64,000 nucleotides of DNA from Planctomycetota bacterium. Its GTDB lineage: Bacteria > Planctomycetota > Phycisphaerae > Phycisphaerales > Phycisphaeraceae. Below the pieces are notes generated by a model that was given only the letters and a program-made list of their open reading frames with translations, had not been told where the DNA came from and ran no database searches. A program made the position numbers and the translations under genes. This document shows, piece by piece, positions 36,101 to 54,919 of this stretch (position 1 is its first letter; each line of letters begins with the position of its first letter). The stretch spans positions 106,988-170,987 of the forward strand of contig JBCCNL010000001.1 in assembly GCA_039025855.1 (NCBI GenBank), written 5' to 3'.

Positions 36101-38661
36101 TCGAGATGCACGGCTCTGTCGGCCTGCTCCGCTACCGCAGCGCCGCCCGGGCCATGGCCGGCTACTGGTGGGCCACGCTCGAAGACCGCCGGCTCCGCGA
36201 ACGCCTCACCCATCAGCTCGCCGGCTTCGGCACCGTCGGCGACGTCTTCGCCTCCGCCACCCAGCAACGCGCCTACATCGACGAGCTGTCCCAACACCTC
36301 CACCGCTTCGCCGAAGGCCTCGACCTTTTCGACGCATCGCTCTCATCAGAAGCGGGCGAGTACCTCTTCTATGAGCTGACCGAACCCAAAGACGGGCTCG
36401 TGGTCAGCCCCGAAGCGGCCGAGCTGTTCGACGCCTTCAACAACCACCTCCGCGGCAACCGCTCGCTGAAAAAGTTCCGCGACTCGATCGAAGCCCTCAA
36501 CGACGCCTGGCTCGCCCGCTTCGGCCTCATCCGCGACTGGGCCCACGCCTTCCTCAGCGAGAGCGACGACTTCCCGTCCGACATCTACCGCCACTACGCC
36601 GACGAGTTGGCCCTGCTCCTGCTGCACGGCAAGCCCCCGACCGACCGCATCCACACCGCGAGCGTCCGCCGTGAGCTCGACGGGCTCATCGGCTCACACG
36701 CCGTGATCGATCAGGGCCAATACAGCCTGGACTACAACGAGTTCCTCGCCCGCCTCCGCCACTTTGCCGGCCACACCGTCCCCCGCTTCGAGGCCTACAC
36801 CCACCTGAAACAACAGCTGCTTGATGCTGCCCGCGACGAGATGCGGCTGGACGAGTTCAAGCCCAAGGTCCTCACGTCCTTCGTCCGCAACCAGCTCATC
36901 GACAAGGTCTTCCTCCCACTGATCGGCGACAACCTCGCCAAGCAGATGGGCACCGCCGGGACGGACACCCGCACCGACCGCATGGGCCTGCTCCTGCTCA
37001 TCTCCCCGCCCGGCTACGGCAAGACCACCCTCATGGAGTACATCGCCAACCGCCTCGGCGTCATCTTCATGAAGATCAACGGCCCCGCGATCGGCCACTC
37101 CGTCACCTCCATCGACCCCGCCGAGGCCACCAACGCCGCCGCCCGCGAAGAGCTCGAAAAACTCAACCTCGCCTTCGAGATGGGCGACAACGTCGTGATC
37201 TACGTCGACGACATCCAGCACACCCACCCCGAGTTCCTGCAGAAGTTCATCAGCCTGTGTGACGCCCAGCGGCGCATCGAGGGCGTGTACAAGGGCAAGA
37301 CGCGGACCTACGACTTCCGCGGGCGGAAGGTCGCCGTGGTCATGGCGGGCAACCCGTACACCGAGTCGGGCGAGCGGTTCGCGATCCCCGACATGCTCGC
37401 CAACCGGGCCGACACCTACAACCTCGGCGACATCATCGGCGACCACGCCGAGGCCTTCAAGATGTCGTACCTCGAGAACTGCCTCACCTCAAACCCCGCG
37501 CTCAACGCCCTCGCGTCCCGCAGCCAGAAAGACGTCTATGGCGTGATCAAGATCGCGGAGACCGACAGCCGCGACGGCGTCGAGTTCGAGGGCAACTACG
37601 GCCGGGACGAGCTCGACGAAATGGTCAACGTGATGAAGAAGCTCATCACCGTCCGCGACGTCATCCTGAAGGTCAACCTGCAGTACATCGCCTCGGCCGG
37701 GCAGGAAGACGCCTACCGCACCGAACCCCCCTTCCAACTCCAGGGCTCGTACCGGAACATGAACCGCATCGCCGAGCGGGTGGTCCCCGTGATGAACGAC
37801 GCGGAACTGCAAACGCTCATCTCCTCGAGCTACGAGCAGGACGCGCAGACCCTGACAACCGGTGCCGAGGCCAACCTGCTCAAGCTCCGCGAGATGTTGG
37901 GCTGGATCACCGATGAGGAGGCCGAGCGTTGGGACGACATCAAGCGGACATTTGTCCGCAACAACTCGGTCAACGCGCTAGGCGGTGACGACAAGACGGC
38001 CGCGGTGCTGACGCAGATGGCCGGCCTCAATCAGGGCCTCGGCGACATCGGCAGCGCACTGTCGACCGGCCTCGATGCTTTGAAAGATGCGGATGCATCA
38101 ACGGATGAGGCGGAACCGATCGCGATCGATCTCGCCCCGCTCGCCGAGCAGATGGCGTCGTTCGCCCAGGGGCTCACGGGTATCCGCGAAGCCATGGCGA
38201 CTGTCGCCGAACGCGCCGCGGCGCCAGTCCCACAAGCACCCAAGCCCGTACCGCAGAACGGCCCCGTCGAAGCACGTTTCGACCAGGGCACGCTCGACGC
38301 GATCCAGGCCCTCACCCAGCAGATGGCCGAGCAGGCCCGGGCCGCGCCGCACTCGCCCGCTATCAACGGCGAAGTACCCGTCTCGAACCGCCCCACCGAC
38401 GAACCGGACGACCCCCCGCACGAGATCCGCGTGATCAACAAGATCCCCGCGACGTTCCTCTACGTGATGAAGGAGCAGTTCAAGCTGATGCAGGCCTGGA
38501 TGGAGCCGCTGACCCGGATCACCGCCGACCAGGACGACCAACTCAAGCAGATGCGGGGCTCCATCCAGCAGATCGTCTCGCGGTACGACGACATGATCCA
38601 ACGGCTCGAGAAGAAGCGGGCGTCCGCCGGAGACGAGATCGATGACGACGCCGATGCTTAG
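33115..38661 (+). CDS. 1,848-aa protein: N-terminal beta-rich domain, long coiled coil, MoxR/AAA_5-type AAA+ ATPase core, helical C-terminal region
   Basis: Walker A LLLISPPGYGKTTLMEY (about 37006-37029). Walker B VVIYVDDIQH. The MoxR-like segment is VAVVMAGNPYTESGERFAIPDMLANRADTYNLGD. Heptad-rich sequence runs about 34.6-35.7 kb. Clean codon bias throughout. Confidence 0.85.
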   Translation: MAETPEATSEALPEDPTPSQGPSHDQIDQGAYEVIRRRLDTHGRDLRTRLDQLNARRKEVFGSIDFKLIDNERITTGNNCVPRDIAAVGDRFLMGFNVHFGLKSHVELDDVFAIYRFDGSTFHADDLSLLDNEDFAKDFTDLFRFYKNAKFAKFFREGPHVYMKFHVGRDVDDFKAFKWAIEGESLRYMGNRSDHEVRYPEQHDFTWTRATREMQTQGAFPHYSIEDIVFVEATGGDFTIKVEDNSNTGEGIYVEPVENADQSLDDAEIHYCVVGHIVLLKVRPYQERNFRYYIFNAKLQQVHREDSLGEACVLLPESHGLVFSRGYYLASGKYQRFPGIPDDLIFERKISAPNGEDFAFLFYHRRQGIYVILAYNLIDQSIDTPLVTNGYAFFGDGRVVFFKTPEDAEPQKHHAIQVWQTPFVGPNYVAPPGEESYLSKIGNRDIVRGMAECVEVLELLSREDLYSDLYVDLVKTTSDLLDAYFWLDHDESANLAEPLGEIKTAAEAAIGEYEKVTRIRRNTERQIAAVTREAEDLVNTNATRIYDNILVYVEALASLREVRGKTIALKELRYADLKHIDELEERVKDQTASLSQRCVDFLLDEKSLTPYQAAAEEHDAKIDSLTKATDAKELAELVQKSADELEMLIEIVGNLRIEDTTHRTEIVDNISAIFGQLNATRTRLRNKQQELGRAEGVSEFNSQLKLLNQSVVNYLDLSDDPEKTEQYLTKVMVQIEELEGRFAEFDEFVIQLTEKRDEVYTAFENRKLQLVEKRNKRADALGQAAGRILSSIKSRVDGMEQINAINSYFASDLMIDKVRDICEQLAELDDTVRVDDIQSRLKAIREDAVRQLKDRQDLQADGRNTIRFGRHVFSVNNQAVDLTTITRGGEMKLHLTGTQFFEAIEDQQLLETQDVWSQEVVSEDTTVYRAEYLAYLMHEQLTRGEPAELQALLKETDDDSDPILDAVRSFMGPRYSEGYTKGVHDADAAVLLRALLEMHGSVGLLRYRSAARAMAGYWWATLEDRRLRERLTHQLAGFGTVGDVFASATQQRAYIDELSQHLHRFAEGLDLFDASLSSEAGEYLFYELTEPKDGLVVSPEAAELFDAFNNHLRGNRSLKKFRDSIEALNDAWLARFGLIRDWAHAFLSESDDFPSDIYRHYADELALLLLHGKPPTDRIHTASVRRELDGLIGSHAVIDQGQYSLDYNEFLARLRHFAGHTVPRFEAYTHLKQQLLDAARDEMRLDEFKPKVLTSFVRNQLIDKVFLPLIGDNLAKQMGTAGTDTRTDRMGLLLLISPPGYGKTTLMEYIANRLGVIFMKINGPAIGHSVTSIDPAEATNAAAREELEKLNLAFEMGDNVVIYVDDIQHTHPEFLQKFISLCDAQRRIEGVYKGKTRTYDFRGRKVAVVMAGNPYTESGERFAIPDMLANRADTYNLGDIIGDHAEAFKMSYLENCLTSNPALNALASRSQKDVYGVIKIAETDSRDGVEFEGNYGRDELDEMVNVMKKLITVRDVILKVNLQYIASAGQEDAYRTEPPFQLQGSYRNMNRIAERVVPVMNDAELQTLISSSYEQDAQTLTTGAEANLLKLREMLGWITDEEAERWDDIKRTFVRNNSVNALGGDDKTAAVLTQMAGLNQGLGDIGSALSTGLDALKDADASTDEAEPIAIDLAPLAEQMASFAQGLTGIREAMATVAERAAAPVPQAPKPVPQNGPVEARFDQGTLDAIQALTQQMAEQARAAPHSPAINGEVPVSNRPTDEPDDPPHEIRVINKIPATFLYVMKEQFKLMQAWMEPLTRITADQDDQLKQMRGSIQQIVSRYDDMIQRLEKKRASAGDEIDDDADA

Positions 38662-39648: not shown

Positions 39649-41436
39649 ATGAATACTCCCCCGCCACAACACGCCTTCTTCAGCGACCTCGCCCGCATGC
39701 TCAACGCCGGGCAGTCGCGCAGTGTCATGCTGACCGGCGAGGTCCACGACCTGTTCTACCTTGAGGCCGCCGACCGCTACGTCCCGCTGGTCCCCTACCT
39801 CTGCCGGCGATGCTCGGTCGAGGGCGTCGTCCCCCTGGTCTACGAGCTCAACGGCCCGATCCGCTGCACCAACGCCGGCGACCGCAGAACCCTCAAAGAA
39901 GCATGGGTCCGCTGGAAGACCGGCCAATCCCTCGACCAGCTCATCCTCCAATCGCTCAACGACGAGTCGGCCCGCCAGCGCCGCGAGTCCCTCGAAGAAC
40001 AGTTCGACCGACTCACCGCCGAGGCCGCCGGCCGACCCACCGCCGCCCTCGAGATGCTTCGGCAACTCACGCTCTGCTCCCGCGCACAAGCGGCACTCGG
40101 CGGCAAGCGGTTCCGGCTGCTCATCCTGGTCGAGGCCGCCGATATGCTCCTCCCCGCGGCCGACGGCGACATCACTCGGCTCAGCGCCAGCGACCGCCAG
40201 CGCGTCGCCATCTGCCAAGACTGGTTCAGCGATCCCGCCTTCATGGAGGGCGACGACAGCGTGGTACTCCTCGCCGAGTCCCGCAGCGCCATCCACCCCC
40301 GCGTCACCCGCCTGCCCCAGATGCTCACCGTCGAGGTCCCTGCCCCCGACGAGGCCCGGCGTGCCTTCTACATCGAACGCTTCACCCGCGACCGCCCGGT
40401 CAAAATCGACATGGGCACCGACGGCCTCGCCCGCCTCTCCGCCGGGCTTTCGCTGCACGCGTTGCGTCAGCTCCTGGTCGCCTCCGCCCACACCGGCACA
40501 TCCATCACCCACCACGCGGTCATCGACCTCGTCGAGCACCACATCACCAGCGCCCTCGGCGAGGGCGTCGTCGAGTTCAGCAAACCCTCGCACACCCTCG
40601 ACGATGTCGTGGGTCACCGCCGGCTGCGCGCGTTCCTCAACGACGAGCTGATCCCCCGCATCAAGTCGACCGGCGAAGACGCCCTGCCCGGCGCCGCGAT
40701 CGCCGGCCCAATCGGCTCGGGCAAGACCTTCGTCTTCGAGGCCGTCGCGGGCGGGCTCGGCCTCCCCGTCCTCGTGCTCAAGAACATCCGCAGCCAATAC
40801 TTCGGGCAGACCGACGTCATCTTCGAGAAGCTCCGACGCGTCCTCGAAGCGCTCGGCAAGGTCATCCTGTTTGTCGACGAGGCCGACACCCAGTTCGGCG
40901 GCGTCGGCGGCGACGCCCACCCCACCGAACGCCGGCTCACCGGCAAAATCCAGGCTTTGATGAGCGACCCCAAGCTCCGCGGCCGAGTCGTCTGGCTGCT
41001 CATGACCGCACGCATCGAACGCCTCAGCCCCGACATCCGACGCCCCGGCCGAGTGGGCGACCTCATCATCCCCGTGCTCGACCCCGCCCCGGGCAGCGAC
41101 GATCGCCGCGACTTCCTCCGCTGGGTCCTCAAGGGCGTCTTCGACCACCCCGACGACGCACTCCTCAATGAACTCGACCAGCTCACCCCCGGCTACTCCG
41201 CCGCCGCCTTCGCCGCCCTCCGCTCACTGCTCAAAGCCAAGGCCGCCGCGCAAGGCCAGCTCGACGCCGCCACCATCCGTGAGGTCGTCGCCGACGTCAT
41301 CCCCGCCGACATCGGCGACCAACGCGAACGCCAGACCCTCCAGGCCCTGCTCAACTGCACCCGCCGATCACTCCTGCCCGACCCGGACATCGACGAGTCC
41401 ACCCGCGAGGCGTGGCGGCGAGCCCTCGGCCAGTGA
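39649..41436 (+). CDS. Tandem AAA+ ATPase: degenerate N-terminal module plus classical-clade C-terminal AAA module
   Basis: C-terminal module: Walker A IAGPIGSGKTFV (about 40705-40728), Walker B VILFVDEAD (about 40861-40887), and second region of homology SPDIRRPGRVGDLIIPVLDP. The N-terminal module has a Walker-B-like FRLLILVEAADML but no GKT P-loop (VMLTGEVHD). The track start GTG is at 39619; I prefer the ATG at 39649. Confidence 0.85.
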   Translation: MNTPPPQHAFFSDLARMLNAGQSRSVMLTGEVHDLFYLEAADRYVPLVPYLCRRCSVEGVVPLVYELNGPIRCTNAGDRRTLKEAWVRWKTGQSLDQLILQSLNDESARQRRESLEEQFDRLTAEAAGRPTAALEMLRQLTLCSRAQAALGGKRFRLLILVEAADMLLPAADGDITRLSASDRQRVAICQDWFSDPAFMEGDDSVVLLAESRSAIHPRVTRLPQMLTVEVPAPDEARRAFYIERFTRDRPVKIDMGTDGLARLSAGLSLHALRQLLVASAHTGTSITHHAVIDLVEHHITSALGEGVVEFSKPSHTLDDVVGHRRLRAFLNDELIPRIKSTGEDALPGAAIAGPIGSGKTFVFEAVAGGLGLPVLVLKNIRSQYFGQTDVIFEKLRRVLEALGKVILFVDEADTQFGGVGGDAHPTERRLTGKIQALMSDPKLRGRVVWLLMTARIERLSPDIRRPGRVGDLIIPVLDPAPGSDDRRDFLRWVLKGVFDHPDDALLNELDQLTPGYSAAAFAALRSLLKAKAAAQGQLDAATIREVVADVIPADIGDQRERQTLQALLNCTRRSLLPDPDIDESTREAWRRALGQ

Positions 41437-41545
41437 TCACGACCGGTTCAATCCCTCAACCGCACTTCCGCAGCGCACCGGCCACCACCCCACCGCCGGC
41501 GACAAGTCTGCCATGATGTAGCGTCCTCTCCTCAGGACTCTTCCC

Positions 41546-42712
41546 ATGAAAATCACCGATGTCAAAGTCTGGCTCGTCCGCGGCGTCAAATACAACTGGA
41601 CCCTCCTCAAGGTCTACACCGACACCGGACACACCGGCGTCGGCGAAGCCACCAACTGGCCCGGCTCACCCATCATCGAGGCCGCCGCTAAGCACGTCGG
41701 GCAGCGCGTCATCGGGCTCGACCCCATGCGCACCGACTTCATCTGGACCAAGCTCTACCGCGACCTCAACTGGATCGGGCCCTACGGCGCCAGCCTCTGC
41801 GCCATCTCCGGCCTCGACATGGCCCTGCTCGACCTCAAGGGCAAAGTCCTCGGCACCCCCTGCTACCAACTCCTCGGCGGTGCCTACCGCACCGAGCTCC
41901 TGCTCTACGCCAACTACTGGTTCGATCGCGGCGAACACACCCCCGAGGACTACGCCAAGCAGGCCCAGGCCGTGGTCGACGCCGGCTTCACCGGGCTCAA
42001 GTTCGACCCCTTCGCCCACACCAACTACCTCTACGGCGACCACCTCTCCGACAACCTCACCCTCACCCCCGCACAACAAGACCTCGCCTACAACCTCACC
42101 GCCGCCGTCCGCGAAACCGTCGGCCCCGACTTCGAGATGATGATCGAGACCCACGCCATGCTCAACGGTGACATCGCCGTCAAGATGGCCGAACGCCTCG
42201 GGCCCCTCGGCGTCACCTGGTACGAAGAACCCGCCGGCCCCGAGAGCGCCGAGACCCTCGCCGCCCTCCGAAGGCGCCTGCCCAGCAATATCCCCATCAC
42301 CGTCGGCGAACGCCACTACACCCGCCACGCCTTCCGACCCATCTTCGAGAAGCACGTCTGCGATGTCGTCATGCCCGACGTCACCCGCTGCGGCGGTCCC
42401 TCCGAACTCAAGCGCATCGCCACCATGGCTGAGGCCTACAACGTCCTCATCGCTCCGCACAACCCCAACGGCCCGCTCTGCACCCTCGCCAGCGCCCACG
42501 TCTGCGCGTCGATCCCCAACTTCTTCCGCTGCGAGTTCATGTTCATGGACGTCCCGTGGCGCGACACCGTCATCGACCACCCCCTCGACGTCCGCGACGG
42601 CAAGCTCCACCTCTCCGATCGCCCGGGCCTCGGCGTCGACCTCGTCGAAGACGAGATGGAAAAACACCCCGGCGTCCGCGACGTCAGCGAGATCCACAAC
42701 TTCTACGTCTGA
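41546..42712 (+). CDS. Enolase-superfamily enzyme (mandelate racemase/muconate lactonizing family; sugar-acid dehydratase or cycloisomerase-like)
   Basis: MKITDVKVWLV...LLKVYTDTGHTGVGEAT...ISGLDMALLDLKGKVLGTPCYQLLGG...MIETHA...WYEEP... Confidence 0.85.
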   Translation: MKITDVKVWLVRGVKYNWTLLKVYTDTGHTGVGEATNWPGSPIIEAAAKHVGQRVIGLDPMRTDFIWTKLYRDLNWIGPYGASLCAISGLDMALLDLKGKVLGTPCYQLLGGAYRTELLLYANYWFDRGEHTPEDYAKQAQAVVDAGFTGLKFDPFAHTNYLYGDHLSDNLTLTPAQQDLAYNLTAAVRETVGPDFEMMIETHAMLNGDIAVKMAERLGPLGVTWYEEPAGPESAETLAALRRRLPSNIPITVGERHYTRHAFRPIFEKHVCDVVMPDVTRCGGPSELKRIATMAEAYNVLIAPHNPNGPLCTLASAHVCASIPNFFRCEFMFMDVPWRDTVIDHPLDVRDGKLHLSDRPGLGVDLVEDEMEKHPGVRDVSEIHNFYV

Positions 42713-42715
42713 CCC

Positions 42716-44794
42716 TCAGAAACTCAACCGCTCCGCGTGCTCTTCATCGCGCACCAACACCTGCCGCCGCTGGTGCGTCGCCATGCGTCCCGCCCGACGC
42801 TGCGCCGCCCGGAACAGCCACCCCAACACCCACCCCGGTAGACGCACCGGCACCGACTTCAACAGCCGCCGACGCACCGGCGTGAACTTCACCAGCAGCG
42901 GATCGTCCAGGCTCGTGATCACCGTCGCCGTCCCCGGCTCGCCCTGCCGTGCGCTGCGACCTTCAAGCTGCCGATCTACCCGGCGTGACTCGTGACGATC
43001 CGTCGCAATCACCGCCAGCCCGCCCCGCTCGACCACGCCCTCAGGCAGCTTGATGTCCGTCCCCCGACCCGCCATGTTCGTCGCCACCGTCACCCGCCCC
43101 AGCTGCCCCGCCTCCGCGACAATCGCCGCCTCCTGCTCGTGCAGGTGCGCGTTTAGCACCGCATGCGGAACGCCCGCGCCCGTCAGCCGAACGCTCAGGC
43201 TCTGGCTGTCATCCACACTCCGCGTGCCCACCAGCACGGGCCGACCCGCAGCGTGCATTTCCCTCGTCAGCTCTGTCACCGCGTCCCACTTGGCATCCAA
43301 CGTCGGCAGCGGCCGAACAGTCTGGGTCTCGCGGCGGCATACCCGGTGCGTCGGGATCCGCACCGTCTGCATCCGATAGGTCCGCCAAAGCTCCGCCCGT
43401 TCTCCCCACGCGGTCCCGGTCATCCCGCTCAGCCGGCGGTACAGCCGGAAGAACCGCTGGAAGCTGATCGCCGCCAGCGTGTGGTTCAGGTCGCTGACCT
43501 CCAGGCCCTCCTTCGACTCGACCGCCTGGTGCAGCCCCGCCTGCCACGTGCGGTCGGGCATCAGCCGGCCCGTGCTCTCGTCCACAATCACCACCTTGCC
43601 ATCCTGCACCACGTACTGGTCGTCGCGCAGATACAGGTACTGCGCCACCAACGCCTGATACACCCGCTCTTCCAGGCGACGCACCGGGCTACGGTCCGCA
43701 TCGCCTCTCGAACCCACCAACCGCTTGATGTGTTGCCGACCCGCCTGCGTCAGGCGCAGGTCCCGGTGCCGCCGATCCAGCCGGAAGTCGCGGTCGGGCT
43801 GCAGCCGCGCCGCCAACGCCGTGGCGTCCCGATACGTGAACTCCCGGGCGTCGCCGCCCGGTGCCGTATCCGCCTTCGGCCCCGAAATAATCAACGGCGT
43901 CGTCGACTCATCAAGCAAGATCGAGTCGGCCTCGTCAATGATCGCCGCCTCACCGCGGAAGAACCGGCCCTGCGACCGCGTCGACTCACCCGTCAGGTTC
44001 CGGGCCAGAACCGAAGCGAGCGGCATCGACGCACGATCGGTCTGCGCCTGTTCCTGCAGCAGGTCACGCAGGTAGTCCGCGGCCGCCTCCTTGTGCGTCG
44101 TGTACGTGATGTCGGCCGCATACGCGCTGCCCCGATCGTGAGGCGGCGTGCCACCCGTGATGTAAGCCACGCGCAGCCCCGCGCCGCCAAACAACGGCTT
44201 GGCCCACTGGGCGTCCCGTTTAGCCAGGTAGTCGTTCACGGTGAAGACGTGACAACCCCGGCCGTGCCACCCGACCAGGCAGGCGGCCAGCGCCGCCACC
44301 AGCGTCTTGCCCTCGCCCGTCGCCATCTCCGTCATCCGGCCATCCAGCAACGCCGCGGCCGCCGCGACCTGCACGCGGTACGCATTGAGCCCCAGGGTCC
44401 GCCGCGCCGCCTCCCGGATCAGCGCGAGCGCTTCAACCCGCTGCTCGACCGTGACCGACCCTCGCCGAAACACCGCACGCTGCTCCGCCAGCCGCCCGCT
44501 CAACGCATCGATGTGCAACTCCCTGCACACCGCCTCCTGCGCGAGCACGCGGTCCGCCAAACGCAGATAACGACGCACCGAACACCGCCCCGCAACCAGG
44601 TGCGACGCGACCCACTCGTACACCGCATCGGCATGCCGACGCGGCTTCGCCGGCTGCCGGTTATGCGATCGGCTCCGCCACGCCTCCCCATCACGCCACA
44701 GCTTCGCCAGCGCCGGCGTCTGCAACTCACCCGGCCGCGCTACGCCCACGGGCTGGTTCGGGTCAGACGGGAACAGCGTGGTCAGGCTCGACAT
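42716..44794 (-). CDS. SecA-like DEAD-motor ATPase lacking the canonical SecA C-terminal scaffold, wing and CTL domains
   Basis: Colinear with the SecA NBD1-PPXD-NBD2 region: TEMATGEGKTLVAALAA (about 44298-44326), HVFTVNDYLAKRDAQW, AIIDEADSILLDESTTPLIISGP, NMAGRGTDIKL, GGLAVIATDRHESRRVDRQLEGRSARQGEPG. Only about 50 aa follow NBD2. The ATG at 44794 shares 1 nt with the upstream stop (TGATG). The track start is 44881. Confidence 0.8.
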   Translation of the reverse strand: MSSLTTLFPSDPNQPVGVARPGELQTPALAKLWRDGEAWRSRSHNRQPAKPRRHADAVYEWVASHLVAGRCSVRRYLRLADRVLAQEAVCRELHIDALSGRLAEQRAVFRRGSVTVEQRVEALALIREAARRTLGLNAYRVQVAAAAALLDGRMTEMATGEGKTLVAALAACLVGWHGRGCHVFTVNDYLAKRDAQWAKPLFGGAGLRVAYITGGTPPHDRGSAYAADITYTTHKEAAADYLRDLLQEQAQTDRASMPLASVLARNLTGESTRSQGRFFRGEAAIIDEADSILLDESTTPLIISGPKADTAPGGDAREFTYRDATALAARLQPDRDFRLDRRHRDLRLTQAGRQHIKRLVGSRGDADRSPVRRLEERVYQALVAQYLYLRDDQYVVQDGKVVIVDESTGRLMPDRTWQAGLHQAVESKEGLEVSDLNHTLAAISFQRFFRLYRRLSGMTGTAWGERAELWRTYRMQTVRIPTHRVCRRETQTVRPLPTLDAKWDAVTELTREMHAAGRPVLVGTRSVDDSQSLSVRLTGAGVPHAVLNAHLHEQEAAIVAEAGQLGRVTVATNMAGRGTDIKLPEGVVERGGLAVIATDRHESRRVDRQLEGRSARQGEPGTATVITSLDDPLLVKFTPVRRRLLKSVPVRLPGWVLGWLFRAAQRRAGRMATHQRRQVLVRDEEHAERLSF

Positions 44795-47031
44795 CAGAGA
44801 CTCAGCCCCAGCGGGGACGCGTTCGGATCGCCCGGCACCTGGAACCGCCGCTGCAACACCTGCCGCGCCGAGCGGTACCACTGCTGCAGCAGCGGCTTGT
44901 CCGGCAGGCTGAAACGCACCACCACCGTCTGCCCGTGCTGCATCGCCCAGGCGACCTGCTCCGCATCCGCCGCCTCACCCAGCTCGGGTTCGATCACGAT
45001 CTCGAAGTACGGCTCGGCCGCGGTCGTCCCCTGCGGGTCCGTCGGGTCGGTCGCGATCTGCCCCCCCGCCGCCTCCGACAACGCCGCCGAAGGCAGCCGA
45101 CGCTGACCCGCGGGCATCGCCTGCACCACCCGGCCCGAAAAACCACGGTCGGGCTGATCGGTCGGACGCACCTCCACCCGGTGATCCGCCTGCAACAAAC
45201 GCGGCCCCTCAAACTGATCCGCCGCCACCCGCACCGTCAGCCGACCCGTCTCCGCCAACACGCCAACCGGTTCACCCCGCCGCACATAGTGCCCCTGCAC
45301 ATCGTCATCCAGTGCCGGCGTCCACGTCCCCGCGAATCCCGCCGTCATCACCAGCGACGCCCGCCGCTCCCGCGCCTTCGCCAGAAGGTCCCGTGTCGCC
45401 GCCAGCTGCTCCGCAATCACCTGCCGCTGGATCGGCTCCTCCACCACCGCCCGGCGATACCGCGCTTCCAGCAACGCCTGCCGCGCCTCCAGCTCCAACA
45501 CCTCCGCGTCCAGCCGGGGGTTCGCCGCCGACACCAGCACCCCCCCCGCCGACACCTCCGCATCCGACCCCGCGATCGATTCCACAAACCCCTCCGCCTC
45601 GGCATGCACCGTCACCAGCCGTGCCGGCTCCAACACCCCCAGCGCCCTCGGCCGGTCCGGCACCGGCACCCACCCCAACACCAGCAACGGCCCGCCGATC
45701 ATCAACACCGTCGCCAGCACCGCCCGCCCACGCACCCGCGCCGGCTCCGGCGACGCGCTCAGGTAATGCACCAGCTTGATCGACGGGATCACCAGATACC
45801 CCACCAACGCCAAGATCACAAAGATCGCCCCAATGAAGAACAGCTTGTCCGCCACAAACATGATGATCACCACGCCAAGGAACAGCCGGTACGCCAACGA
45901 CGCCAGCCCGAACACCACAAACCAGAAGCGCTCCTTGAGGTTCCCACCCGCCGCCGGATTGATCAGCTGCCGCACCCCGTAGACATACCGCCGGATTAGG
46001 TACGTCATGTACTGCTGCGCACGCTGATACAGGTTCGGCGTCTCGATGACATCGGACAGGATGTAGTAACCATCAAACTTGATCAGTGGGTTCGCGTTGA
46101 ACAGGATCGTCGACACACCAGCGATGAAGATCAGGTTGTAAGCCAACGCGTGGGCCAGCGTCCCGTCCGCCGTCTGCGACCAGACCACCGCCGCCACCGC
46201 CGCCACCGCGAGCTCGGCATACATCCCCGCCGCCCCCACAAACGCCCGCTGCCATTTGCTCGGAAGCGTCCACGCACTCGTCGCATCGACATACGGCACC
46301 GGCGTCAACACCATCAGCATGATCCCCACCGTGTGCACCTCGCCCTGCCCGTGACGCCGACGCCCGAACCGCTTGCACGCAAACGCATGCCCCAACTCGT
46401 GCAGCAGCTTGATCCCCACCAGACACACGTAAAGCCAAATCAAGTTCTGCGGCGCAAGCACATTCCCCGTCTGCGCCCACAGCTCATCAAACCGCCCCAG
46501 CAACGACCACCCACCCAGCACCAGCAGCCCGGCCCACAGCACCCAGCCCACCGGCCCAAACAACCAGGCCACCGCCGGCAGCCAACGATTCAAAAACCGG
46601 TCCGGGTCCCAGATCGGCACCCGCGCAAACAACAGGTTCTTGAGATACCCACCCACCTCCTTGCGGATCCGCTTCTGCCGCCGTTCAAACATCCGCCCCG
46701 CGTCCGGTGACAGCTCGTGGTCCAACAAGTTGCTCGTGTGCAGCTGCCCGATCAGCCGCAGCGCCTCGCCCTGTGTTGGCGCCTCGTCCTCGAGCTGTTC
46801 CTGTACCGCTTCCCACGCGTCCTGGATGCTCCGACGCCCGTCGAGCAGCCCGACAAACCGATACCCCGCTGCGCTCAGCCGGAAGTGCTGGTTGTTCGAC
46901 GGGTCCATCACCACGTACCACTGCCTACCGCGATATTGCTGACGACCGCACTGCACCGTCGAGCGCAGCCTCGGCTTCGTCTCCGCAATGCGGTGCCAGG
47001 AGTCGTCGTAGGTCGGCCGTTCAAACGCCAA
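44794..47031 (-). CDS. Fusion protein: PqqD-like (RRE-like) N-terminal domain, M50 (site-2-protease-type) membrane metalloprotease, C-terminal HlyD-type adaptor
   Basis: N-terminus: FRLSAAGYRFVGLLDGRRSIQDAWEAVQEQLEDEAPTQGEALRLIGQLHTSNLL (PqqD-like pattern). HExxH in a TM helix: IKLLHELGHAFACKRFG (about 46381-46401). C-terminus: barrel-sandwich, coiled-coil hairpin and beta-barrel MFP pattern (LVTVHAEAEGFVESI...VLELEARQALLEARYRRA...). Confidence 0.75.
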   Translation of the reverse strand: MAFERPTYDDSWHRIAETKPRLRSTVQCGRQQYRGRQWYVVMDPSNNQHFRLSAAGYRFVGLLDGRRSIQDAWEAVQEQLEDEAPTQGEALRLIGQLHTSNLLDHELSPDAGRMFERRQKRIRKEVGGYLKNLLFARVPIWDPDRFLNRWLPAVAWLFGPVGWVLWAGLLVLGGWSLLGRFDELWAQTGNVLAPQNLIWLYVCLVGIKLLHELGHAFACKRFGRRRHGQGEVHTVGIMLMVLTPVPYVDATSAWTLPSKWQRAFVGAAGMYAELAVAAVAAVVWSQTADGTLAHALAYNLIFIAGVSTILFNANPLIKFDGYYILSDVIETPNLYQRAQQYMTYLIRRYVYGVRQLINPAAGGNLKERFWFVVFGLASLAYRLFLGVVIIMFVADKLFFIGAIFVILALVGYLVIPSIKLVHYLSASPEPARVRGRAVLATVLMIGGPLLVLGWVPVPDRPRALGVLEPARLVTVHAEAEGFVESIAGSDAEVSAGGVLVSAANPRLDAEVLELEARQALLEARYRRAVVEEPIQRQVIAEQLAATRDLLAKARERRASLVMTAGFAGTWTPALDDDVQGHYVRRGEPVGVLAETGRLTVRVAADQFEGPRLLQADHRVEVRPTDQPDRGFSGRVVQAMPAGQRRLPSAALSEAAGGQIATDPTDPQGTTAAEPYFEIVIEPELGEAADAEQVAWAMQHGQTVVVRFSLPDKPLLQQWYRSARQVLQRRFQVPGDPNASPLGLSL

Positions 47032-47057
47032 TGCAGAACCTCAATCGTCAATCGGCG

Positions 47058-49073
47058 TCAGAGCCAGAGCTGCATCCGCACCCAGTTCACCGCGTCCCGC
47101 GTCCACAACCAGAGGTGGCTCGACTCGCCCGCATCCAGCCGGGCCGCGCCCGTCATCCCCGGCCGAAGCCAGACCGGCTGACGGTCCAGCTCCACCTCCG
47201 CCGCGAACACGTTCCGCCCCTCGTGCACCTTCGCCTGAGGCTCGATCGACCGCACCGTGAAGCCCACCCGCTGATCCGGGTAACTCGTCGTCGCCAGCTC
47301 GCCCCGCATCCCCAGCGTCACCTCTCCCGCCCGGTCCTCCGGGATATAAAGCTCCGCCCGCAGCGCCTCCACGGGCGCGACCTCAAAGAGCGTGTCGCCC
47401 TCCGTCACCGCCTTCCCGATCTCACGCTTCAGGTCGCCCGCCATCACCATCCCGCCCAGCGACGACCGCAGTGCCGCCATCTCGATCTGCCGTTCAATCA
47501 AGCGGCGCTTCGCCGCCGTCGCCTCCGCCTCCGCCATCGACACCTGAACGCCCGACATGTCCGACTCCCGCCGCGCCGCCTCCGCCTGCTTCCGCTGCGC
47601 CGTCTCCTGCGCCCAGAGCTCCGCCGCCTGCAACCGGAGCTCCGCCGTATCCAGCTCCGCCAACACCGTCGCCCCCGCCTGCACCGCATCGCCCGGCCCA
47701 ACATGCACCGACTTCAGATACCCCGCGAACGGCGCCGTCACCAGCTGCCGCTGCGTCGCCTCAATCACAAAGCTCGACTCCACATGGTCCGTCCCCTTGC
47801 CCAGCGTCAACCACAGCACCAACGCCAAGAGCCCGACCGCTGCGACCTTCGCCCAGGTGTACTGCGTGCCCAGCGCTTTGCCGAGCACCCGTGTGCTCCC
47901 GTCCTTGAGCCGACCCCCCACCCAACGGTCACGCTGCCGCAGCGGCACCAGCAACGGCGTCGCCAACTCACCAATCAACCGCAACCGCGTCAACCGCTGC
48001 GCCGTCTCCGCGGCGTCCTTCGGCAGCTCGTTCCACTCCAGCGTCAGCACCGCCACCACCCCGCCCTCCCGTCCCTGCTCCGACTCGCCGCTCACCTCGC
48101 CCTTCGCCCCGCCCACGTGACGCAGCGGAAGCGACACCGCACACGCCGAGCCGTGCTGCTTCGTCAACGCCTGATGGTCTCGGCTCACCACCGGCACCTC
48201 GGGCGGCGCGGGCCACACCACCTCGATGTCCTGATCCAGACACTCGTGCATCGCCGACTCCAGGTCCTGCACCAGCTTCATCCGCCGGTTCAGCCGCTCG
48301 GTCCGGCTCATCGCGATCAGCTTGAGCGCCTCCCGCTGCGGCTCCACCCAACCCAGGCTCACCCGCTCCGCCCCGTGCCGCGACGCCAGCTCGTTGCACA
48401 ACCCCATGGCCGCCTCACGGAACCGCCGACAACGCCCCAGCGCCGCCAAGACATCCACCGATTCCGTCAGCCGATCGATCCCGCCCTGCTTCTGGTGCAG
48501 CTGCGCCCGCGCGTCATACGCCCCGAGCAACCCAAGCGTCAGCTCCACCTGCTGCGCCGCCCGATCCACCTCGCCCCGCGACACGCCCTGAAGCCCCAGC
48601 GCCACCATGAACCGTCCTTCCCCGCCATCCAACCCGACCGACTGCGGCAGGCCCAACAACACCAAGAACTGCTCACTCGCCGACTCCGGCGGCGCAGTCG
48701 TTGCGGTCGCATTCTCAGCCGGGACGGACTGACGGATCCCCATCACCACCGGCGTCGACCGCGCAAACACCCGCTCCGCCTGCTCCGCCGCGAACCGCAC
48801 CCAGGGCGGTGGCAACCGATCCGGGTGCGGGTTGTAGTCCGCCACCACCGCCGGCCCGGACTGCGGCATAAACCGGATCACCACCCCGTGGTCCGCGCCC
48901 GTCAGCCGGCCCTGAAGCGTCACCAACCGCTGCAGGAACTCCGGAGCCGGGCCATCGAACCGCGCCAGCATCTCCACGACCGTCGGCCGCTTCGCGTCGG
49001 CCGCCGGCTGCTGCCCCAAGCCCCCACCCGACAGCCCCGCACCACCCGAAGAAGATCGACCTGATTCATCCAT
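47058..49073 (-). CDS. HlyD-family adaptor with large cytoplasmic N-terminal region (two GAF-like modules), one TM helix and a periplasmic MFP domain
   Basis: TM helix KVAAVGLLALVLWLTLG. The MFP part reads LVTAPFAGYLKSVHVGPGDAVQAGATVLAELDTAELRLQAAELWAQE...GMTGAARLDAG. Calling the N-terminal ~330 aa GAF-like is a pattern-level, low-certainty call. Confidence 0.65.
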   Translation of the reverse strand: MDESGRSSSGGAGLSGGGLGQQPAADAKRPTVVEMLARFDGPAPEFLQRLVTLQGRLTGADHGVVIRFMPQSGPAVVADYNPHPDRLPPPWVRFAAEQAERVFARSTPVVMGIRQSVPAENATATTAPPESASEQFLVLLGLPQSVGLDGGEGRFMVALGLQGVSRGEVDRAAQQVELTLGLLGAYDARAQLHQKQGGIDRLTESVDVLAALGRCRRFREAAMGLCNELASRHGAERVSLGWVEPQREALKLIAMSRTERLNRRMKLVQDLESAMHECLDQDIEVVWPAPPEVPVVSRDHQALTKQHGSACAVSLPLRHVGGAKGEVSGESEQGREGGVVAVLTLEWNELPKDAAETAQRLTRLRLIGELATPLLVPLRQRDRWVGGRLKDGSTRVLGKALGTQYTWAKVAAVGLLALVLWLTLGKGTDHVESSFVIEATQRQLVTAPFAGYLKSVHVGPGDAVQAGATVLAELDTAELRLQAAELWAQETAQRKQAEAARRESDMSGVQVSMAEAEATAAKRRLIERQIEMAALRSSLGGMVMAGDLKREIGKAVTEGDTLFEVAPVEALRAELYIPEDRAGEVTLGMRGELATTSYPDQRVGFTVRSIEPQAKVHEGRNVFAAEVELDRQPVWLRPGMTGAARLDAGESSHLWLWTRDAVNWVRMQLWL

Positions 49074-49085
49074 CGCCGATCCTTT

Positions 49086-49952
49086 TCAATTCGCCACCGC
49101 CGTCGGCTCCGCGTCCGCTTCCTGAACCAAAGCCTCCGCCTCCCGCGGCAGCCACACCAGGAACCCAGCCGGCAGCGACAGGTCGCTGTTGTCAATCGCA
49201 AACACACACCGGAACGTCTGACTCGCCGGGTCGATCATCGGGTCCACCCACTTCAGCTCCGCCCGCAAGCCCCGCCCCACCGGTGCCCCCGCCTGCAGCT
49301 CGTACCGCTGACCCACCTCCATCTGCCCGTACCGCGCGACCGGCAAAAACAGCTCGGCCTTGAGTTCCGTCAACGACGCAAACACCGCCACCGGATCGCC
49401 CTGGTCCACCGTCGCACCCGGCTGCGCCTCCAGCTTCATCACCCGCCCATCGAACGGCGCCTTCAGTGCAAACCGTTCCAGACGCGCCTGCTCCAGATCA
49501 AACTGCAGCGCCGCCGCATCACGATCCTGCTTCGCGATCGCCAGGTCGATCTTCGAGAGCTCCAGCTGCACCCGAGCCTGACGGACCTCCCAGTCCGTCC
49601 CCGCGTCCTGCTTCACCATGTCCTTCGCCTGCTCCAGCCGGAGCTGCAACTCGTTGACCGCCTCGACCGCACGACGCACCGACAGGTCGCTCTCCGACCG
49701 CATCTGCGCCAACGCCACCGCCTCCGCCTGACCCCGATCCGCCAGCCTTGCGATCAACTCACCCGCCGACCGGGCCTCGCCCTCCGCCGCCAACTCACCC
49801 GGGATCACCTGGCCCACCGCCTCGGCCCGCAGCACCACGTACCGCGTCGGCTTCACGATGCCTTGATCCAGCATCGCGTCCTGCGCCGCCACAACACCCG
49901 CAGCACCAACGCTCACAAACGCAAAAATTGACCGTTTCAGGAGTTCTTTCAC
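49086..49952 (-). CDS. HlyD-family periplasmic adaptor (membrane fusion protein), signal-peptide form
   Basis: Signal peptide MKELLKRSIFAFVSVGAAGVVAAQD, a coiled-coil hairpin, and RFALKAPFDGRVMKLEAQPGATVDQGDPVAVF. Confidence 0.75.
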   Translation of the reverse strand: MKELLKRSIFAFVSVGAAGVVAAQDAMLDQGIVKPTRYVVLRAEAVGQVIPGELAAEGEARSAGELIARLADRGQAEAVALAQMRSESDLSVRRAVEAVNELQLRLEQAKDMVKQDAGTDWEVRQARVQLELSKIDLAIAKQDRDAAALQFDLEQARLERFALKAPFDGRVMKLEAQPGATVDQGDPVAVFASLTELKAELFLPVARYGQMEVGQRYELQAGAPVGRGLRAELKWVDPMIDPASQTFRCVFAIDNSDLSLPAGFLVWLPREAEALVQEADAEPTAVAN

Positions 49953-50056
49953 CCACTGAGACTACCGCCCGCCATCGACGTACACAAGAGATACTTCGCG
50001 CCGATTCAGGCCCGACCACGACGCCTTGTCAAGAGCACACTAAGTAATTCCGTAGA

Positions 50057-50199
50057 AACCGTTAACGAGTCTTCGAAAACCCGCCGCAGGGGCGATAAAC
50101 CACGCCCGGATCAAGGCCAGTCCCGCCCCGCTCCGACGCCCCATCAAATGGGCCGCTCGTGGTTGTTTCCGTCCCAACGGCCGATTATTGTTAACGGTT
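50057..50199. promoter_or_regulatory. 10-bp inverted repeat pair AACCGTTAAC (50057-50066) and GTTAACGGTT (50190-50199) in a divergent intergenic region
   Basis: Read directly. Both arms contain the AT-rich palindrome GTTAAC (the first is CGTTAACG), which is conspicuous in GC-rich DNA. The second arm abuts a TTGACA hexamer (50198-50203). Confidence 0.25.
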
Positions 50200-50376
50200 G
50201 ACAATCATCGCGACGATCCAGTCCCCCAAGCACGCGGCCCCTCGTTGTTTTCACCTCGTCGTGACACGGACCGCCAGGACGCACCGCTCACCCAGCGCGC
50301 CGCTCAGCCCGGCGACCAACCCCGCCATCTCCCCGCCGACTCCCCCCGCTCCTCCCGTCTCCAGAAAGCCCACGCC

Positions 50377-52053
50377 ATGAAGACCCCCACGCCGCTGCTT
50401 CTGATCCTGCTCCTGGCAATGACCAGCCTCGCCTGCACCGGCCCCAGCCCCACCGCCAAGGCCGACGGCCACAACCCGCCCGCACCCCCCAACATCATCT
50501 TCATCATCACCGATGACCAGGAGCGCCGAGAGCTCGGCTTCCTCGAAAACCAATCCCACACCCCCCACCTCGACGCCCTCGCCGCAGGCGGCACCTACTT
50601 CAGCAACTGCTACGTCAACTCCAGCGTCTGCACCCCCAGCCGCTACGGCGTCATGACCGGCCAATACGCCAGCCGAAGCGAAACCGACTTCTTCAAGCGG
50701 CACACCAGCGCAGAGGGCGTCACCCAGGTCGTCTGGAACCCCGGCCTCATGCCCGACCAGCCCACCCTCCCCTCGGTCCTCAAAGAAGCCGGCTACGCCA
50801 CCGGCTTCGTCGGCAAGTGGCACATCGGCAGCCTCAAACGCGCCCCGGGCCCCAAGCTCGAGCAAGGCGCCGACCCCGCCGACCAGGCCACCATCGCCCG
50901 CCTCAAAGCCAACCAAGCCTCCTTCGCCGAAGACCTCCGCACCAAAGGCTTCGACTTCGCCGACGCCATCTACTCCGGCAACCCCGACGACGACCAGGAA
51001 CTCAAACGCGTCGGCCTCAACGTCCACCACCAGGAGTGGGTCACCCGCGGCGGCCTCAATTTCATCGATCAGTCCGTCGCCCAGGACAAGCCCTTTTTCC
51101 TCTACTTCTCGACCACGCTCACCCACGTCCCCAAGCCGCTCGAATCCCTCAAGCTCGACCCCCGCGTCTCACCCATCGGCATGCTCGACGCACCCATCGA
51201 AGGCGTCCAACCCTCCCGCGCCGACGTCATCGCCCGCGGCCAACAACTCGGCATCCCCGAAGAACTCTGGGGCTCGATGTGGCTTGACGACGGTATCGGC
51301 GCCCTCACCGCCAAGCTCCGCGAACATGGCATCGAAGACAACACCCTCATCGTCTACTTCGTCGATCACGGCATGGAGTTCCGCAGCAAAGGCACCTCCT
51401 ATCAAGGCGGCCTCATCTCCCCAACCCTCTTCTTCTGGCCCGGCCAAGTCCCCGCGGGCAAGACCCAGGACGCCCTGATCCAGAACATCGACTTCGCCCC
51501 CACCTTCCTCGAACTCGCCGGTGCCACCCCGCCCGCAAGCATGGTGATCGACGGTAAGTCGCTCGTCGAACTCATCCGCGGCAGCGACGCCCCCGTCCGC
51601 AAGTCCGTCTTCAGCGAGCTCGGCCTCACCCGCACCGTCGTCACCGCCGACGGCTGGAAGTACCTCGCCTTCCACGTCCCGCCCAGCCTCCAACGCACGA
51701 CCGAAGAGCGTCTGGCCGACCACAAAAAGCGCCTCAGTGAGATCCACACCAAACACCCGTGGACCCGCAACAACCCGCACTACGCGCTCGACCCCGAAGC
51801 CAAGTACTTCCAGCTCGGCATGGCCGCCGGCGGCAACGTCTTCGAGCGCAACCAGCTCGCCGGCAATGTGCCTTTCCGAGCCCACTACTTCGACGCGCAT
51901 CAGCTCTTCAACCTCAACGCCGACCCGGACGAGACGACCAACCTCGCGGACGACCCGAAATACGCCGACAAGCTCGCCGAGATGCAGGCCGAGCTCACGG
52001 TCTACCTCGACAGCCTCCCCGGCACGTACGGCGACCTCAAGCCCAGCGAGTAA
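50377..52053 (+). CDS. Secreted sulfatase (formylglycine-dependent, S1 family)
   Basis: Signal/lipoprotein-like MKTPTPLLLILLLAMTSLACTG. NIIFIITDDQ. Active-site motif SSVCTPSRYGVMTG (CxPxR). The track ORF starts at 50188; I prefer the ATG at 50377. Confidence 0.85.
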   Translation: MKTPTPLLLILLLAMTSLACTGPSPTAKADGHNPPAPPNIIFIITDDQERRELGFLENQSHTPHLDALAAGGTYFSNCYVNSSVCTPSRYGVMTGQYASRSETDFFKRHTSAEGVTQVVWNPGLMPDQPTLPSVLKEAGYATGFVGKWHIGSLKRAPGPKLEQGADPADQATIARLKANQASFAEDLRTKGFDFADAIYSGNPDDDQELKRVGLNVHHQEWVTRGGLNFIDQSVAQDKPFFLYFSTTLTHVPKPLESLKLDPRVSPIGMLDAPIEGVQPSRADVIARGQQLGIPEELWGSMWLDDGIGALTAKLREHGIEDNTLIVYFVDHGMEFRSKGTSYQGGLISPTLFFWPGQVPAGKTQDALIQNIDFAPTFLELAGATPPASMVIDGKSLVELIRGSDAPVRKSVFSELGLTRTVVTADGWKYLAFHVPPSLQRTTEERLADHKKRLSEIHTKHPWTRNNPHYALDPEAKYFQLGMAAGGNVFERNQLAGNVPFRAHYFDAHQLFNLNADPDETTNLADDPKYADKLAEMQAELTVYLDSLPGTYGDLKPSE

Positions 52054-52068
52054 TCACCGAGACCTCTC

Positions 52069-52986
52069 ATGCCCATCGCCTCACGCCCTGTCACCCAAGC
52101 GGTCTGCATTTTCATTATGGCTCTAACCTCTTCCTTCACGTCCGGCTGCGCCGGCGACGGCTCGCCCACCACGGGCCCGTTCCTCTTGCCCGGAACCGAC
52201 ACCGACGCCGAGGCCCTGCGCTGGTCCCCGGTTGACAACATGTCCGACGAGTTCGACGGCAACACCGTCGACGCCACCAAGTGGCAGACCGAGCCCTTCG
52301 AGAACGGCTGGGTCTGGATCGGCCGACCTCCCGGGCTGTTCAAATCCGAAAACATCAGCGTCGCCGACGGCTCACTCAACGTCACCGTCAGCGGCCTGCC
52401 GGAAACGTTCGAGAAGAACGGCCGGACCTACGACTACCAGGGCGGCATCGTCCGCTCCCTCCACGCCGGACAGCCCGGCTGGTACTACGAGACCCGCATG
52501 AAGGCCAACGCGACCGTCATGTCCTCCACCTTCTGGCTCATGACCTCGAACCGATCGGCCAGCAAGAAGAAGCTCGAGCTCGACATCCAGGAGTGCGTCG
52601 GGCTCACCACCGACCTCACCTTCGACTGGGCCCGCACCTGGGACCAGATCTACCACTCCAACATGATCCACCGCGTCAACCAGTACAACCCAGAGCCGGT
52701 GCAGCACCAGAAATCCGTCCCCACGGAGACCAAGAACCACGAGCGCTACTACGTCTACGCCGCCTGGTGGAAGTCACCCGAAGAAGTCCGGTTCTACCTC
52801 GACGGGGCCTACGTCTACTCCATCACCCCACCGATCACCTGGGACGTCCCCGCCTTCCTCCAGATGGCCATCGAGACCTACGACTGGAACCCCGTCCCCG
52901 AGGACGGCGGGCTGATCACCACCGGCACGCTCGACCAACGCACCACCCGCTACGACTGGGTTCGCGTCTGGAAACCCGAACAGTAG
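52069..52986 (+). CDS. Glycoside hydrolase family 16 (agarase/porphyranase/carrageenase-type)
   Basis: GH16 catalytic motif ExDxxE present as KKLELDIQECVG. Lipoprotein-like signal ...IMALTSSFTSGC. Beta-jelly-roll pattern WVWIGRPPGLFKSENISVADGSLNVTV. Confidence 0.75.
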   Translation: MPIASRPVTQAVCIFIMALTSSFTSGCAGDGSPTTGPFLLPGTDTDAEALRWSPVDNMSDEFDGNTVDATKWQTEPFENGWVWIGRPPGLFKSENISVADGSLNVTVSGLPETFEKNGRTYDYQGGIVRSLHAGQPGWYYETRMKANATVMSSTFWLMTSNRSASKKKLELDIQECVGLTTDLTFDWARTWDQIYHSNMIHRVNQYNPEPVQHQKSVPTETKNHERYYVYAAWWKSPEEVRFYLDGAYVYSITPPITWDVPAFLQMAIETYDWNPVPEDGGLITTGTLDQRTTRYDWVRVWKPEQ

Positions 52987-53108
52987 ACACAGCCCGATCA
53001 CCCGCCCGACGCCGGCGGTCAACAGCGAGCCGGGGCGTGTCGCCCCGGTCCAACCAACCCGCCGCTCCCGCCCCCCACCACCCCCCACCGCCCCCACCGA
53101 GCCACCCG

Positions 53109-54904: not shown

Positions 54905-54919
54905 GCCAATCGGCCACCG

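Follow-up and report, generated by a model that had tools for sequence, protein, structure and literature searches.

The 64,000-nucleotide (nt) stretch of the Planctomycetota contig JBCCNL010000001.1 analysed here (hereafter the window) carries on its minus strand, at 42716..44794, a gene for a SecA-like protein. The encoded protein is almost certainly a SecA paralogue that has kept a complete ATPase motor, the proximal part of the scaffold helix, and the polypeptide-binding clamp formed by the preprotein cross-linking domain (PPXD). Every element used by canonical SecA to reach into SecY and to regulate itself is lost from it. The gene and the three tightly packed genes upstream of it on the minus strand form an operon (42716-49952) in the order small HlyD adaptor, adaptor with a cytoplasmic domain and an HlyD domain, PqqD(RRE)-M50-HlyD fusion, and SecA-like protein. 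We infer that the SecA-like motor docks to the M50/HlyD proteins encoded with it. The gene and its context are already known as a comparative-genomics observation from 2015, with the function uncharacterised; new here are the mapping of the C-terminal tail, the RRE domain on the protease, and the giant repeat proteins that lie adjacent in four loci.

The SecA-like protein ends within the scaffold helix

The open reading frame (ORF) starts with an ATG at 44794, stops at 42716 and encodes 692 amino acids (aa), a sequence that is an exact match to an NCBI protein entry from a Planctomycetota metagenome-assembled genome (MAG; locus-tag prefix AAF750), where it lies on a 238-kb contig. It contains the motifs MATGEGKT, TVNDYLAKRDA, IIDEADSILLDESTTPLIISGP, MAGRGTDIKL and HESRRVDRQLEGRSARQGEPG, and its tail is LPGWVLGWLFRAAQRRAGRMATHQRR. 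Pfam matched the protein to SecA_DEAD (2e-83), SecA_PP_bind (2e-28) and P-loop_SecA (1e-51), with scores far over the thresholds, and did not detect SecA_SW in it, and hydropathy analysis of the protein gave no transmembrane segment. The features recognised by these searches, by alignment and in an AlphaFold2 (AF2) model are as follows.

42716..44794, minus strand: SecA-like protein, consisting of nucleotide-binding domain 1 (NBD1), PPXD, NBD2 and the first part of the scaffold helix (Pfam, NCBIfam, alignments, AF2, Foldseek)
44579..44794, minus strand: family-specific N-terminal extension, residues 1-72, preceding the point that matches E. coli SecA residue 17 (alignments, AF2)
44303..44326, minus strand: Walker A motif MATGEGKT, residues 157-164, with K163 invariant in the family
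43517..43837, minus strand: PPXD, residues ~320-426, with the SecA_PP_bind match above its gathering score
42719..42835, minus strand: C-terminal tail, residues 654-692, one long helix that corresponds to E. coli ~620-658 (alignments, AF2)

All of the motifs quoted in the original prediction are present, and the colinearity with SecA claimed there was confirmed when the protein was aligned with E. coli K-12 SecA. By BLASTP, residues 72-684 corresponded to E. coli 17-650 with 39% identity, and a profile-profile alignment (hhalign; 91 members of the SecA-like family against 66 canonical SecAs) matched residues 73-689 to E. coli 18-655, colinearly and with a probability of 100. These two alignments therefore place the end of the protein at about residue 658 of the 901 residues of E. 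coli SecA, and no counterpart of residues ~659-901 was found in them. On the usual E. coli domain boundaries, the protein keeps the first ~35 residues of the long scaffold helix and has lost the distal helix, the helical wing, the IRA1/two-helix finger and the C-terminal linker. The loss that had been predicted for the scaffold, the wing, the finger and the linker thus holds for the last three and for the distal scaffold, but the scaffold helix has kept its proximal part. The end had also been placed about 50 residues after NBD2, which is an approximate figure, as 71 residues follow the GRSARQGEPG motif and ~35 follow the usual boundary between NBD2 and the helical scaffold domain.

In the AF2 model of the protein (mean predicted local distance difference test score, pLDDT, 85.4; predicted template modelling score, pTM, 0.84), residues 654-690 form a single long helix. 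This tail shares homology with the N-terminal ~35 residues of the canonical scaffold helix, so that part of the scaffold is retained, and what had been described as a short basic, hydrophobic tail is the canonical proximal scaffold helix and not a novel appendage. All of the structures matched by the model in Foldseek were SecA structures. The best superpositions were obtained with SecY-engaged, substrate-bound SecA (5eul, TM 0.76; 6itc, TM 0.75), and the SecA-N68 fragment (5k9t) was also among the matches. A remnant of the two-helix finger was considered and rejected: MAFFT aligned the LGF(AG.E) at the end of the family with LRGYAQKDP, the tip of the E. coli finger, a placement that we regard as an alignment artefact because the profile-profile alignment ends colinearly at E. 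coli ~655.

The NCBIfam models for SecA and SecA2 matched the protein strongly, but only to about position 550 of 762-789. The scores fell below the cut-offs for canonical SecA (NF009538, 556.7 against 814; TIGR00963, 533.6 against 800) and below those for SecA2 (TIGR03714, 439.6 against 930; TIGR04221, 426.9 against 725; TIGR04397, 487.4 against 1085; NF012136, 394.5 against 1100). Within the motor, the residues that are invariant across the SecA-like family include K163 of Walker A, the DEAD-type D287/E288 pair of Walker B, and, in the arginine-rich motifs, R577, R613 and R616. The ATPase motifs are intact, and these invariant residues support the catalytic competence predicted for the motor; the polypeptide clamp (PPXD) is likewise kept. 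NBD1 of the family carries a ~24-residue insertion, seen in the alignments and modelled with low confidence. The N-terminal extension contains two predicted helices (26-43 and 54-68), has W39, R40 and D56 nearly invariant across the family alignments, and gave no Pfam match.

The short length is a property of the family

The best 120 homologues of the SecA-like protein are all 608-715 aa long and none has SecA_SW. Their sources are many independent assemblies, closed genomes such as that of Mucisphaera calidilacus (CP036280) among them, and a C-terminal end motif, L-[GS]-[FY], is common to the family. In the window, the stop codon lies 3 nt from that of a convergent gene for a galactonate-dehydratase-like protein of the enolase superfamily (41546..42712). 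When the C-terminal 330 aa of 66 canonical SecAs were compared with the window by tblastn, nothing convincing was obtained beyond the retained helix; two weak alignments that reach 14 codons past the stop have 26-27% identity and are not meaningful. The 64-kb window contains no second SecA-like sequence.

There is practically no chance that the gene is a sequencing frameshift, a pseudogene or a recent truncation of the secA of the genome. The short length speaks for such an origin, and nothing else does. At least 120 independent homologues of 608-715 aa share the same end position and the conserved terminal motif, the convergent gene leaves only 3 nt after the stop, no remnant of the C-terminal part of SecA occurs in any frame of the window, and the family has its own N-terminal extension, its own NBD1 insertion and its own clade. 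A frameshift or pseudogene was ruled out on the family-wide length and end motif, the 3-nt gap and the lack of a C-terminal remnant in the window. In line with the original prediction, neither a frameshift nor a downstream ORF with the missing domains was found in the window.

The family is without a dedicated annotation model and is being misnamed. Several of its members (P0002, P0060, P0081 and P0093) appear at NCBI as 'prepilin peptidase', and others as 'DEAD/DEAH box helicase' or 'hypothetical protein'.

The gene neighbourhood is conserved

The genomic context was compared in a scan of SecA loci with one genome per species, which gave 80 loci, truncated and canonical, from different genomes. 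The comparison set consisted of nine truncated-type loci with flanks and 66 canonical secA loci. An M50-HlyD fusion gene immediately upstream, with a second HlyD gene before it, was present in 9/9 of the truncated loci and in 0/66 of the canonical ones. The nine loci include those of Motiliproteus (Gammaproteobacteria) and Achromobacter piechaudii (Betaproteobacteria), and in the truncated loci the stop codon follows 0-18 residues past the end of the match. In M. calidilacus and in Planctomycetales ZRK34 (CP050848), the SecA-like gene is preceded by the same three large genes, and the small 288-aa adaptor is kept beside the operon in six related loci (L002, L004, L006, L007, L012 and L020). 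When all ORFs around the locus were clustered against each other, only the four operon families proved to be conserved.

In a neighbour-joining tree built from 545 motor-domain columns, without bootstrap, the nine M50-associated proteins, including those of Motiliproteus and Achromobacter, form a clade that excludes the 66 canonical SecAs. The distribution of the neighbours and this exclusive clade support the original prediction that the motor would not engage SecY in the canonical way and would plausibly work with its M50/HlyD neighbours. The same hypothesis was published in PMC4452313.

A second short SecA of ~650-690 aa was seen in two MAGs of Planctomycetaceae (L046:293-2239, plus strand; L062:9662-11737, plus strand). 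These two proteins have a different C-terminus (...DPY...) and branch beside the M50-associated clade. M50/HlyD genes were not detected alongside them, the upstream flank of L046 being only ~290 bp long. They may represent a second type of truncated SecA.

Partner proteins encoded in the operon

The ATG of the SecA-like gene overlaps the stop codon of the upstream M50-fusion gene by 1 nt (TGATG; CTC TGA TG), and by the arrangement of their reading frames the two genes are translationally coupled. The other intergenic gaps measure 26 nt (between the genes for the 671-aa protein and the fusion) and 12 nt (between those for the 288-aa and 671-aa proteins). The three partner genes are the following.

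44794..47031, minus strand: PqqD/RRE-M50-HlyD fusion, 745 aa (Pfam, NCBIfam, AF2, Foldseek, hydropathy)
47058..49073, minus strand: 671-aa adaptor (Pfam HlyD_3 and HlyD_D23, hydropathy)
49086..49952, minus strand: small HlyD/RND_mfp periplasmic adaptor, 288 aa, first gene of the operon (Pfam, RND_mfp 5e-25, hydropathy)

The fusion protein begins with a cytoplasmic PqqD/RRE-like domain (~27-99; PqqD, 27.6 bits against a gathering score of 23.4), which is winged-helix-like at 27-99 in an AF2 model with a pLDDT of 88. It is followed by a polytopic domain of the M50/site-2-protease type (~144-454), with HELGH and N..P....DG motifs and a Peptidase_M50 match above the gathering score, and the active-site residues H211, E212, H215, N312, N314, P315 and D320 are invariant in 63 sequences. 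The C-terminus is a periplasmic membrane-fusion domain of the HlyD/MacA type with an alpha-hairpin (~456-730). In Foldseek, the last ~290 aa gave hits to the TolC-docking adaptors MacA, MexA and AcrA. An alignment of residues 20-417 covers nearly all of the NCBIfam daptide_HExxH model (6.6e-52), with a score below its cut-off. The fusion protein was found in 4112 representative clusters at E<=1e-30, and the best 150 are mostly full-length (~715-740 aa); the number of clusters means that the system is widespread.

The 671-aa adaptor has a cytoplasmic N-terminal domain of ~405 aa, one transmembrane helix (407-428) and a periplasmic HlyD domain. A faint GAF match was obtained with its homologue in the ZRK34 locus (L003). 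The 288-aa adaptor has an N-terminal signal peptide or anchor by hydropathy, and all three HlyD-type adaptor domains of the operon are predicted by hydropathy to be periplasmic. A role in anti-phage defence was also considered and was rejected, as PADLOC returned no defence match for any of the four operon proteins.

Comparison with known systems

Secondary proteins with a SecA_DEAD domain, and the conserved locus that encodes them, were described by Kamneva, Poudel and Ward (PLoS One 2015; PMC4452313). In these proteins SecA_SW is absent or present as a small fragment, and as a clade of their own they stand apart from the canonical SecA that coexists with them in the genomes analysed (PMC4452313). 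The partners encoded at the locus are Peptidase_M50/HlyD, GAF/HlyD and HlyD/biotin-lipoyl proteins, the locus occurs in Planctomycetes and Proteobacteria, and the SecA-like protein was proposed to be the ATPase of a type-I-like system in which the M50 protein is the membrane component (PMC4452313). The authors noted that the locus was known without experiments (PMC4452313). In the literature, no later experimental work on it was found; the searches gave the 2015 paper, one paper citing it and a preprint on SecA_DEAD modules in giant proteins.

The protein in the window belongs with these secondary SecA_DEAD proteins by its domain content, its loss of SecA_SW, its neighbours at the locus and its position in a separate clade with proteobacterial counterparts. 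Domain composition (SecA_DEAD and PPXD, with SecA_SW absent or fragmentary), neighbours, phyla and hypothesis are the same, and nothing essential differs. The copy analysed here adds one case from a Planctomycetota MAG and groups with sequences from Phycisphaerae. Because PMC4452313 describes both the locus and the hypothesis, the observation and the interpretation that prompted this analysis are a rediscovery of a published proposal. The PqqD/RRE domain and the mapping of the tail to the scaffold are not in PMC4452313, and the GAF domain reported there was undetected in the window.

Among laboratory constructs, the E. coli fragment SecA-N68 (PDB 5k9t) is similar in that it is made up of NBD1, PPXD and NBD2 and lacks the C-terminal domains that serve regulation and SecY engagement. 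N68 is an engineered fragment without the whole scaffold helix, whereas the SecA-like protein keeps ~35 residues of that helix and has in addition an N-terminal extension of ~70 aa and the insertion in NBD1. In work by Karamanou and colleagues in 1999, the ATPase of N68 was reportedly de-repressed because the IRA1 domain is missing. The SecA2 proteins of Actinobacteria and Firmicutes (PDB 4uaq, 6sxh) are likewise second paralogues beside a housekeeping SecA and have reduced C-terminal regions. However, they keep the scaffold and the two-helix finger and act with SecYEG or SecY2, whereas the SecA-like protein is without the distal scaffold and the finger, scores below every SecA2 cut-off and has a different genomic context. 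SecA_DEAD/PPXD modules without scaffold or wing also occur in giant proteins of Omnitrophota and Actinobacteria, where they were proposed to act outside the canonical Sec pathway (bioRxiv 10.1101/2023.11.21.568195). Those modules are domains of giant transmembrane proteins, in contrast to the stand-alone, soluble product of a four-gene operon found here.

With type I systems and MacAB-TolC pumps the operon shares membrane-fusion adaptors with an alpha-hairpin and an ATPase-driven inner-membrane component, and in Achromobacter an RTX-repeat protein is encoded beside it. Of the type I hallmarks, HlyD-type domains are carried by three of the operon proteins, and an ATP-binding cassette (ABC) transporter was found neither among the four conserved genes nor among the neighbours tested. 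Instead, the ATPase derives from SecA, and an M50 protease that is fused to an adaptor makes up the membrane component. Genes for outer-membrane efflux proteins (OEP) lie adjacent to the locus in some genomes (PMC4452313).

The fusion protein also resembles the RRE-site-2 proteases of pathways for ribosomally synthesised peptides that are modified after translation (RiPPs), such as daptide MpaP and YydH/LiaK, in which an N-terminal PqqD/RRE domain is fused to a HExxH intramembrane protease. The RRE-HExxH architecture with conserved metal ligands is present in the fusion protein. Proteases of the daptide RRE-intramembrane type remove RiPP leader peptides (bioRxiv 10.1101/2023.03.08.531785). The fusion differs from them by its additional C-terminal adaptor domain and scores below the RiPP equivalog cut-offs (daptide_HExxH NF041824, 176.9 against 300; YydH/LiaK NF058609, 29.6 against 225), and neither conserved small ORFs nor RiPP modification enzymes were found near the operon.

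Proposed mechanism and alternative explanations

It is about an even question whether the four proteins form an envelope-spanning machine for type-I-like export and processing without an ABC transporter. In such a machine the polytopic M50 fusion would be the inner-membrane component or platform, and its cytoplasmic RRE domain would recognise the cargo by a leader. The SecA-like motor would hold the unfolded cargo in its clamp and supply ATP-driven pushing, the M50 active site would cut off the leader, and the three adaptor domains would make the connection to a TolC-like outer-membrane channel whose gene lies elsewhere. The cargo gene would have no fixed position, and the large repeat-rich extracellular proteins found beside the operon in some genomes are candidates. 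The RRE domain, together with the ~400-residue homology to RiPP leader peptidases, suggests that cargo may be recognised and cleaved in a leader-dependent manner. Neither this leader-recognition step nor the giant-protein cargo is part of the 2015 proposal.

We put forward only tentatively the broader view that the operon might represent a distinct class of secretion system, in which a SecA-derived motor would take the place of the ABC transporter, a chimera of RRE, site-2 protease and adaptor would recognise and cleave a leader and pass the cargo to a TolC-type tunnel, and the cargo could be giant repeat proteins.

Several observations count against export by such a machine. In the literature, no experimental demonstration of interaction, ATPase activity, proteolysis or secretion was found. 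The tree that separates the M50-associated proteins from canonical SecA carries no bootstrap values. In the 671-aa adaptor of the window, no GAF domain was found in the N-terminal region by Pfam, even at E<=5. Nothing cargo-like adjoins the operon in the window, where its neighbour is a divergent sulfatase gene, and no conserved cargo or precursor gene was found near the operon at >=50 aa or at 25-90 aa. No TolC/OEP gene was found among the ~30 window ORFs scanned; the TolC-family factor of type I systems is often encoded elsewhere. No M50/site-2 protease is known to form an export channel. Exponentially growing Methylobacterium extorquens AM1 is reported to express most of its operon (META1p2399-2402) poorly or not at all (PMC4452313).

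Some of the same features would fit regulated intramembrane proteolysis or quality control in place of export, a reading that we consider rather unlikely. Here the motor would unfold a membrane or cytoplasmic substrate and feed it to the RRE-M50 protease, the output would be a cleaved signalling or bioactive peptide, and the HlyD domains would be periplasmic sensors or scaffolds and would form no conduit. Consistent with proteolysis are the invariant M50 active site, the RRE-site-2-protease architecture, which is known from the removal of leader peptides and not from transport, the lack of a channel-forming transporter or a TolC gene in the operon, and the sensory GAF-type domain reported in the partner protein (PMC4452313). 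However, three separate conserved periplasmic domains of the membrane-fusion type are hard to explain without a conduit that spans the envelope, their fold matches the adaptors of TolC-dependent pumps including the alpha-hairpin, and OEP genes are sometimes adjacent in other genomes (PMC4452313). It is highly improbable that the protein is an accessory ATPase of the SecA2 kind that still uses the housekeeping SecYEG for a subset of substrates, with its operon neighbours merely co-regulated. The partial matches to NCBIfam SecA2 models are strong (TIGR04221, 1.5e-127, for example), the 2015 tree sets the clade beside actinobacterial SecA2 (PMC4452313), and the AF2 model superposes best on SecY-engaged SecA (TM 0.75-0.76 to 5eul and 6itc), although this conformation may reflect training bias. 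All SecA2 scores are nevertheless far under the curated cut-offs, the two-helix finger, the helical wing and the distal scaffold are absent, no secY2 or asp genes lie nearby, and the gene is strictly linked to, and translationally coupled with, that of the M50-HlyD fusion.

Candidate cargo proteins

In four of the eight related loci with an upstream flank, a giant repeat-rich protein of extracellular type adjoins the 5' end of the operon. The four genes are listed here by locus.

L012:39-5888, plus strand: RTX-repeat protein, Achromobacter piechaudii
L007:52-5445, plus strand: PKD/beta-propeller protein, Motiliproteus
L002:1576-5823, plus strand: Golvesin_C/fn3/dockerin protein, Mucisphaera
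L003:1-5307, minus strand: 7489-aa PKD/He_PIG/RHS protein, Planctomycetales ZRK34

The four proteins have no homology to one another, and none of them is encoded in the window. By their position beside the operon, these giant repeat proteins may be its cargo. A co-encoded precursor peptide or conserved cargo was rejected as a candidate, as no fifth family common to the surroundings of the operon was obtained at >=50 aa or at 25-90 aa.

The window itself encodes a 1343-aa surface-type protein (9855-13886, plus strand) with cadherin-like/Big_9, Calx-beta, PA14 and glucose/sorbosone dehydrogenase domains. No other large repeat protein of extracellular type was seen in the window, and this one lies ~30 kb from the operon.

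Other features of the window

A biosynthetic cluster of lipid or aryl-polyene-like type occupies 14198-30086, mostly on the minus strand. Its genes encode a FAD-dependent halogenase-like protein, an N-domain of an FkbO/Hyg5-type chorismatase, a ketosynthase, a LolA-like protein and a lipid A-type acyltransferase, and further a UbiE-type methyltransferase, a GT2 glycosyltransferase, an acyltransferase, an MMPL transporter and an AMP-dependent ligase. An 1848-aa protein encoded at 33115-38661 on the plus strand has DUF3686 ('ATPase involved in DNA repair', 3e-179), DUF7902 and a C-terminal AAA domain. Genes for polysaccharide degradation cluster at 50188-59096 and encode two sulfatases, an alpha-L-fucosidase and a GH2 glycosidase; such clusters are typical of marine Planctomycetota.

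The GC skew on the plus strand is strongly and steadily negative, about -0.25 to -0.49, at 2001-14000 and 40001-58000. It exceeds what would be expected from gene orientation alone; the plus-strand sulfatase gene at 50188-52053, for example, lies within a region of -0.30.

Significance

If the proposed mechanism is true, the SecA motor would have been reused outside the Sec pathway, powering a tripartite machine for export and processing across Planctomycetota and Proteobacteria. This would be a new energising principle for Gram-negative secretion. The protein would also provide a natural "N68-like" SecA in which the motor can be studied without the regulatory and SecY-engaging domains.

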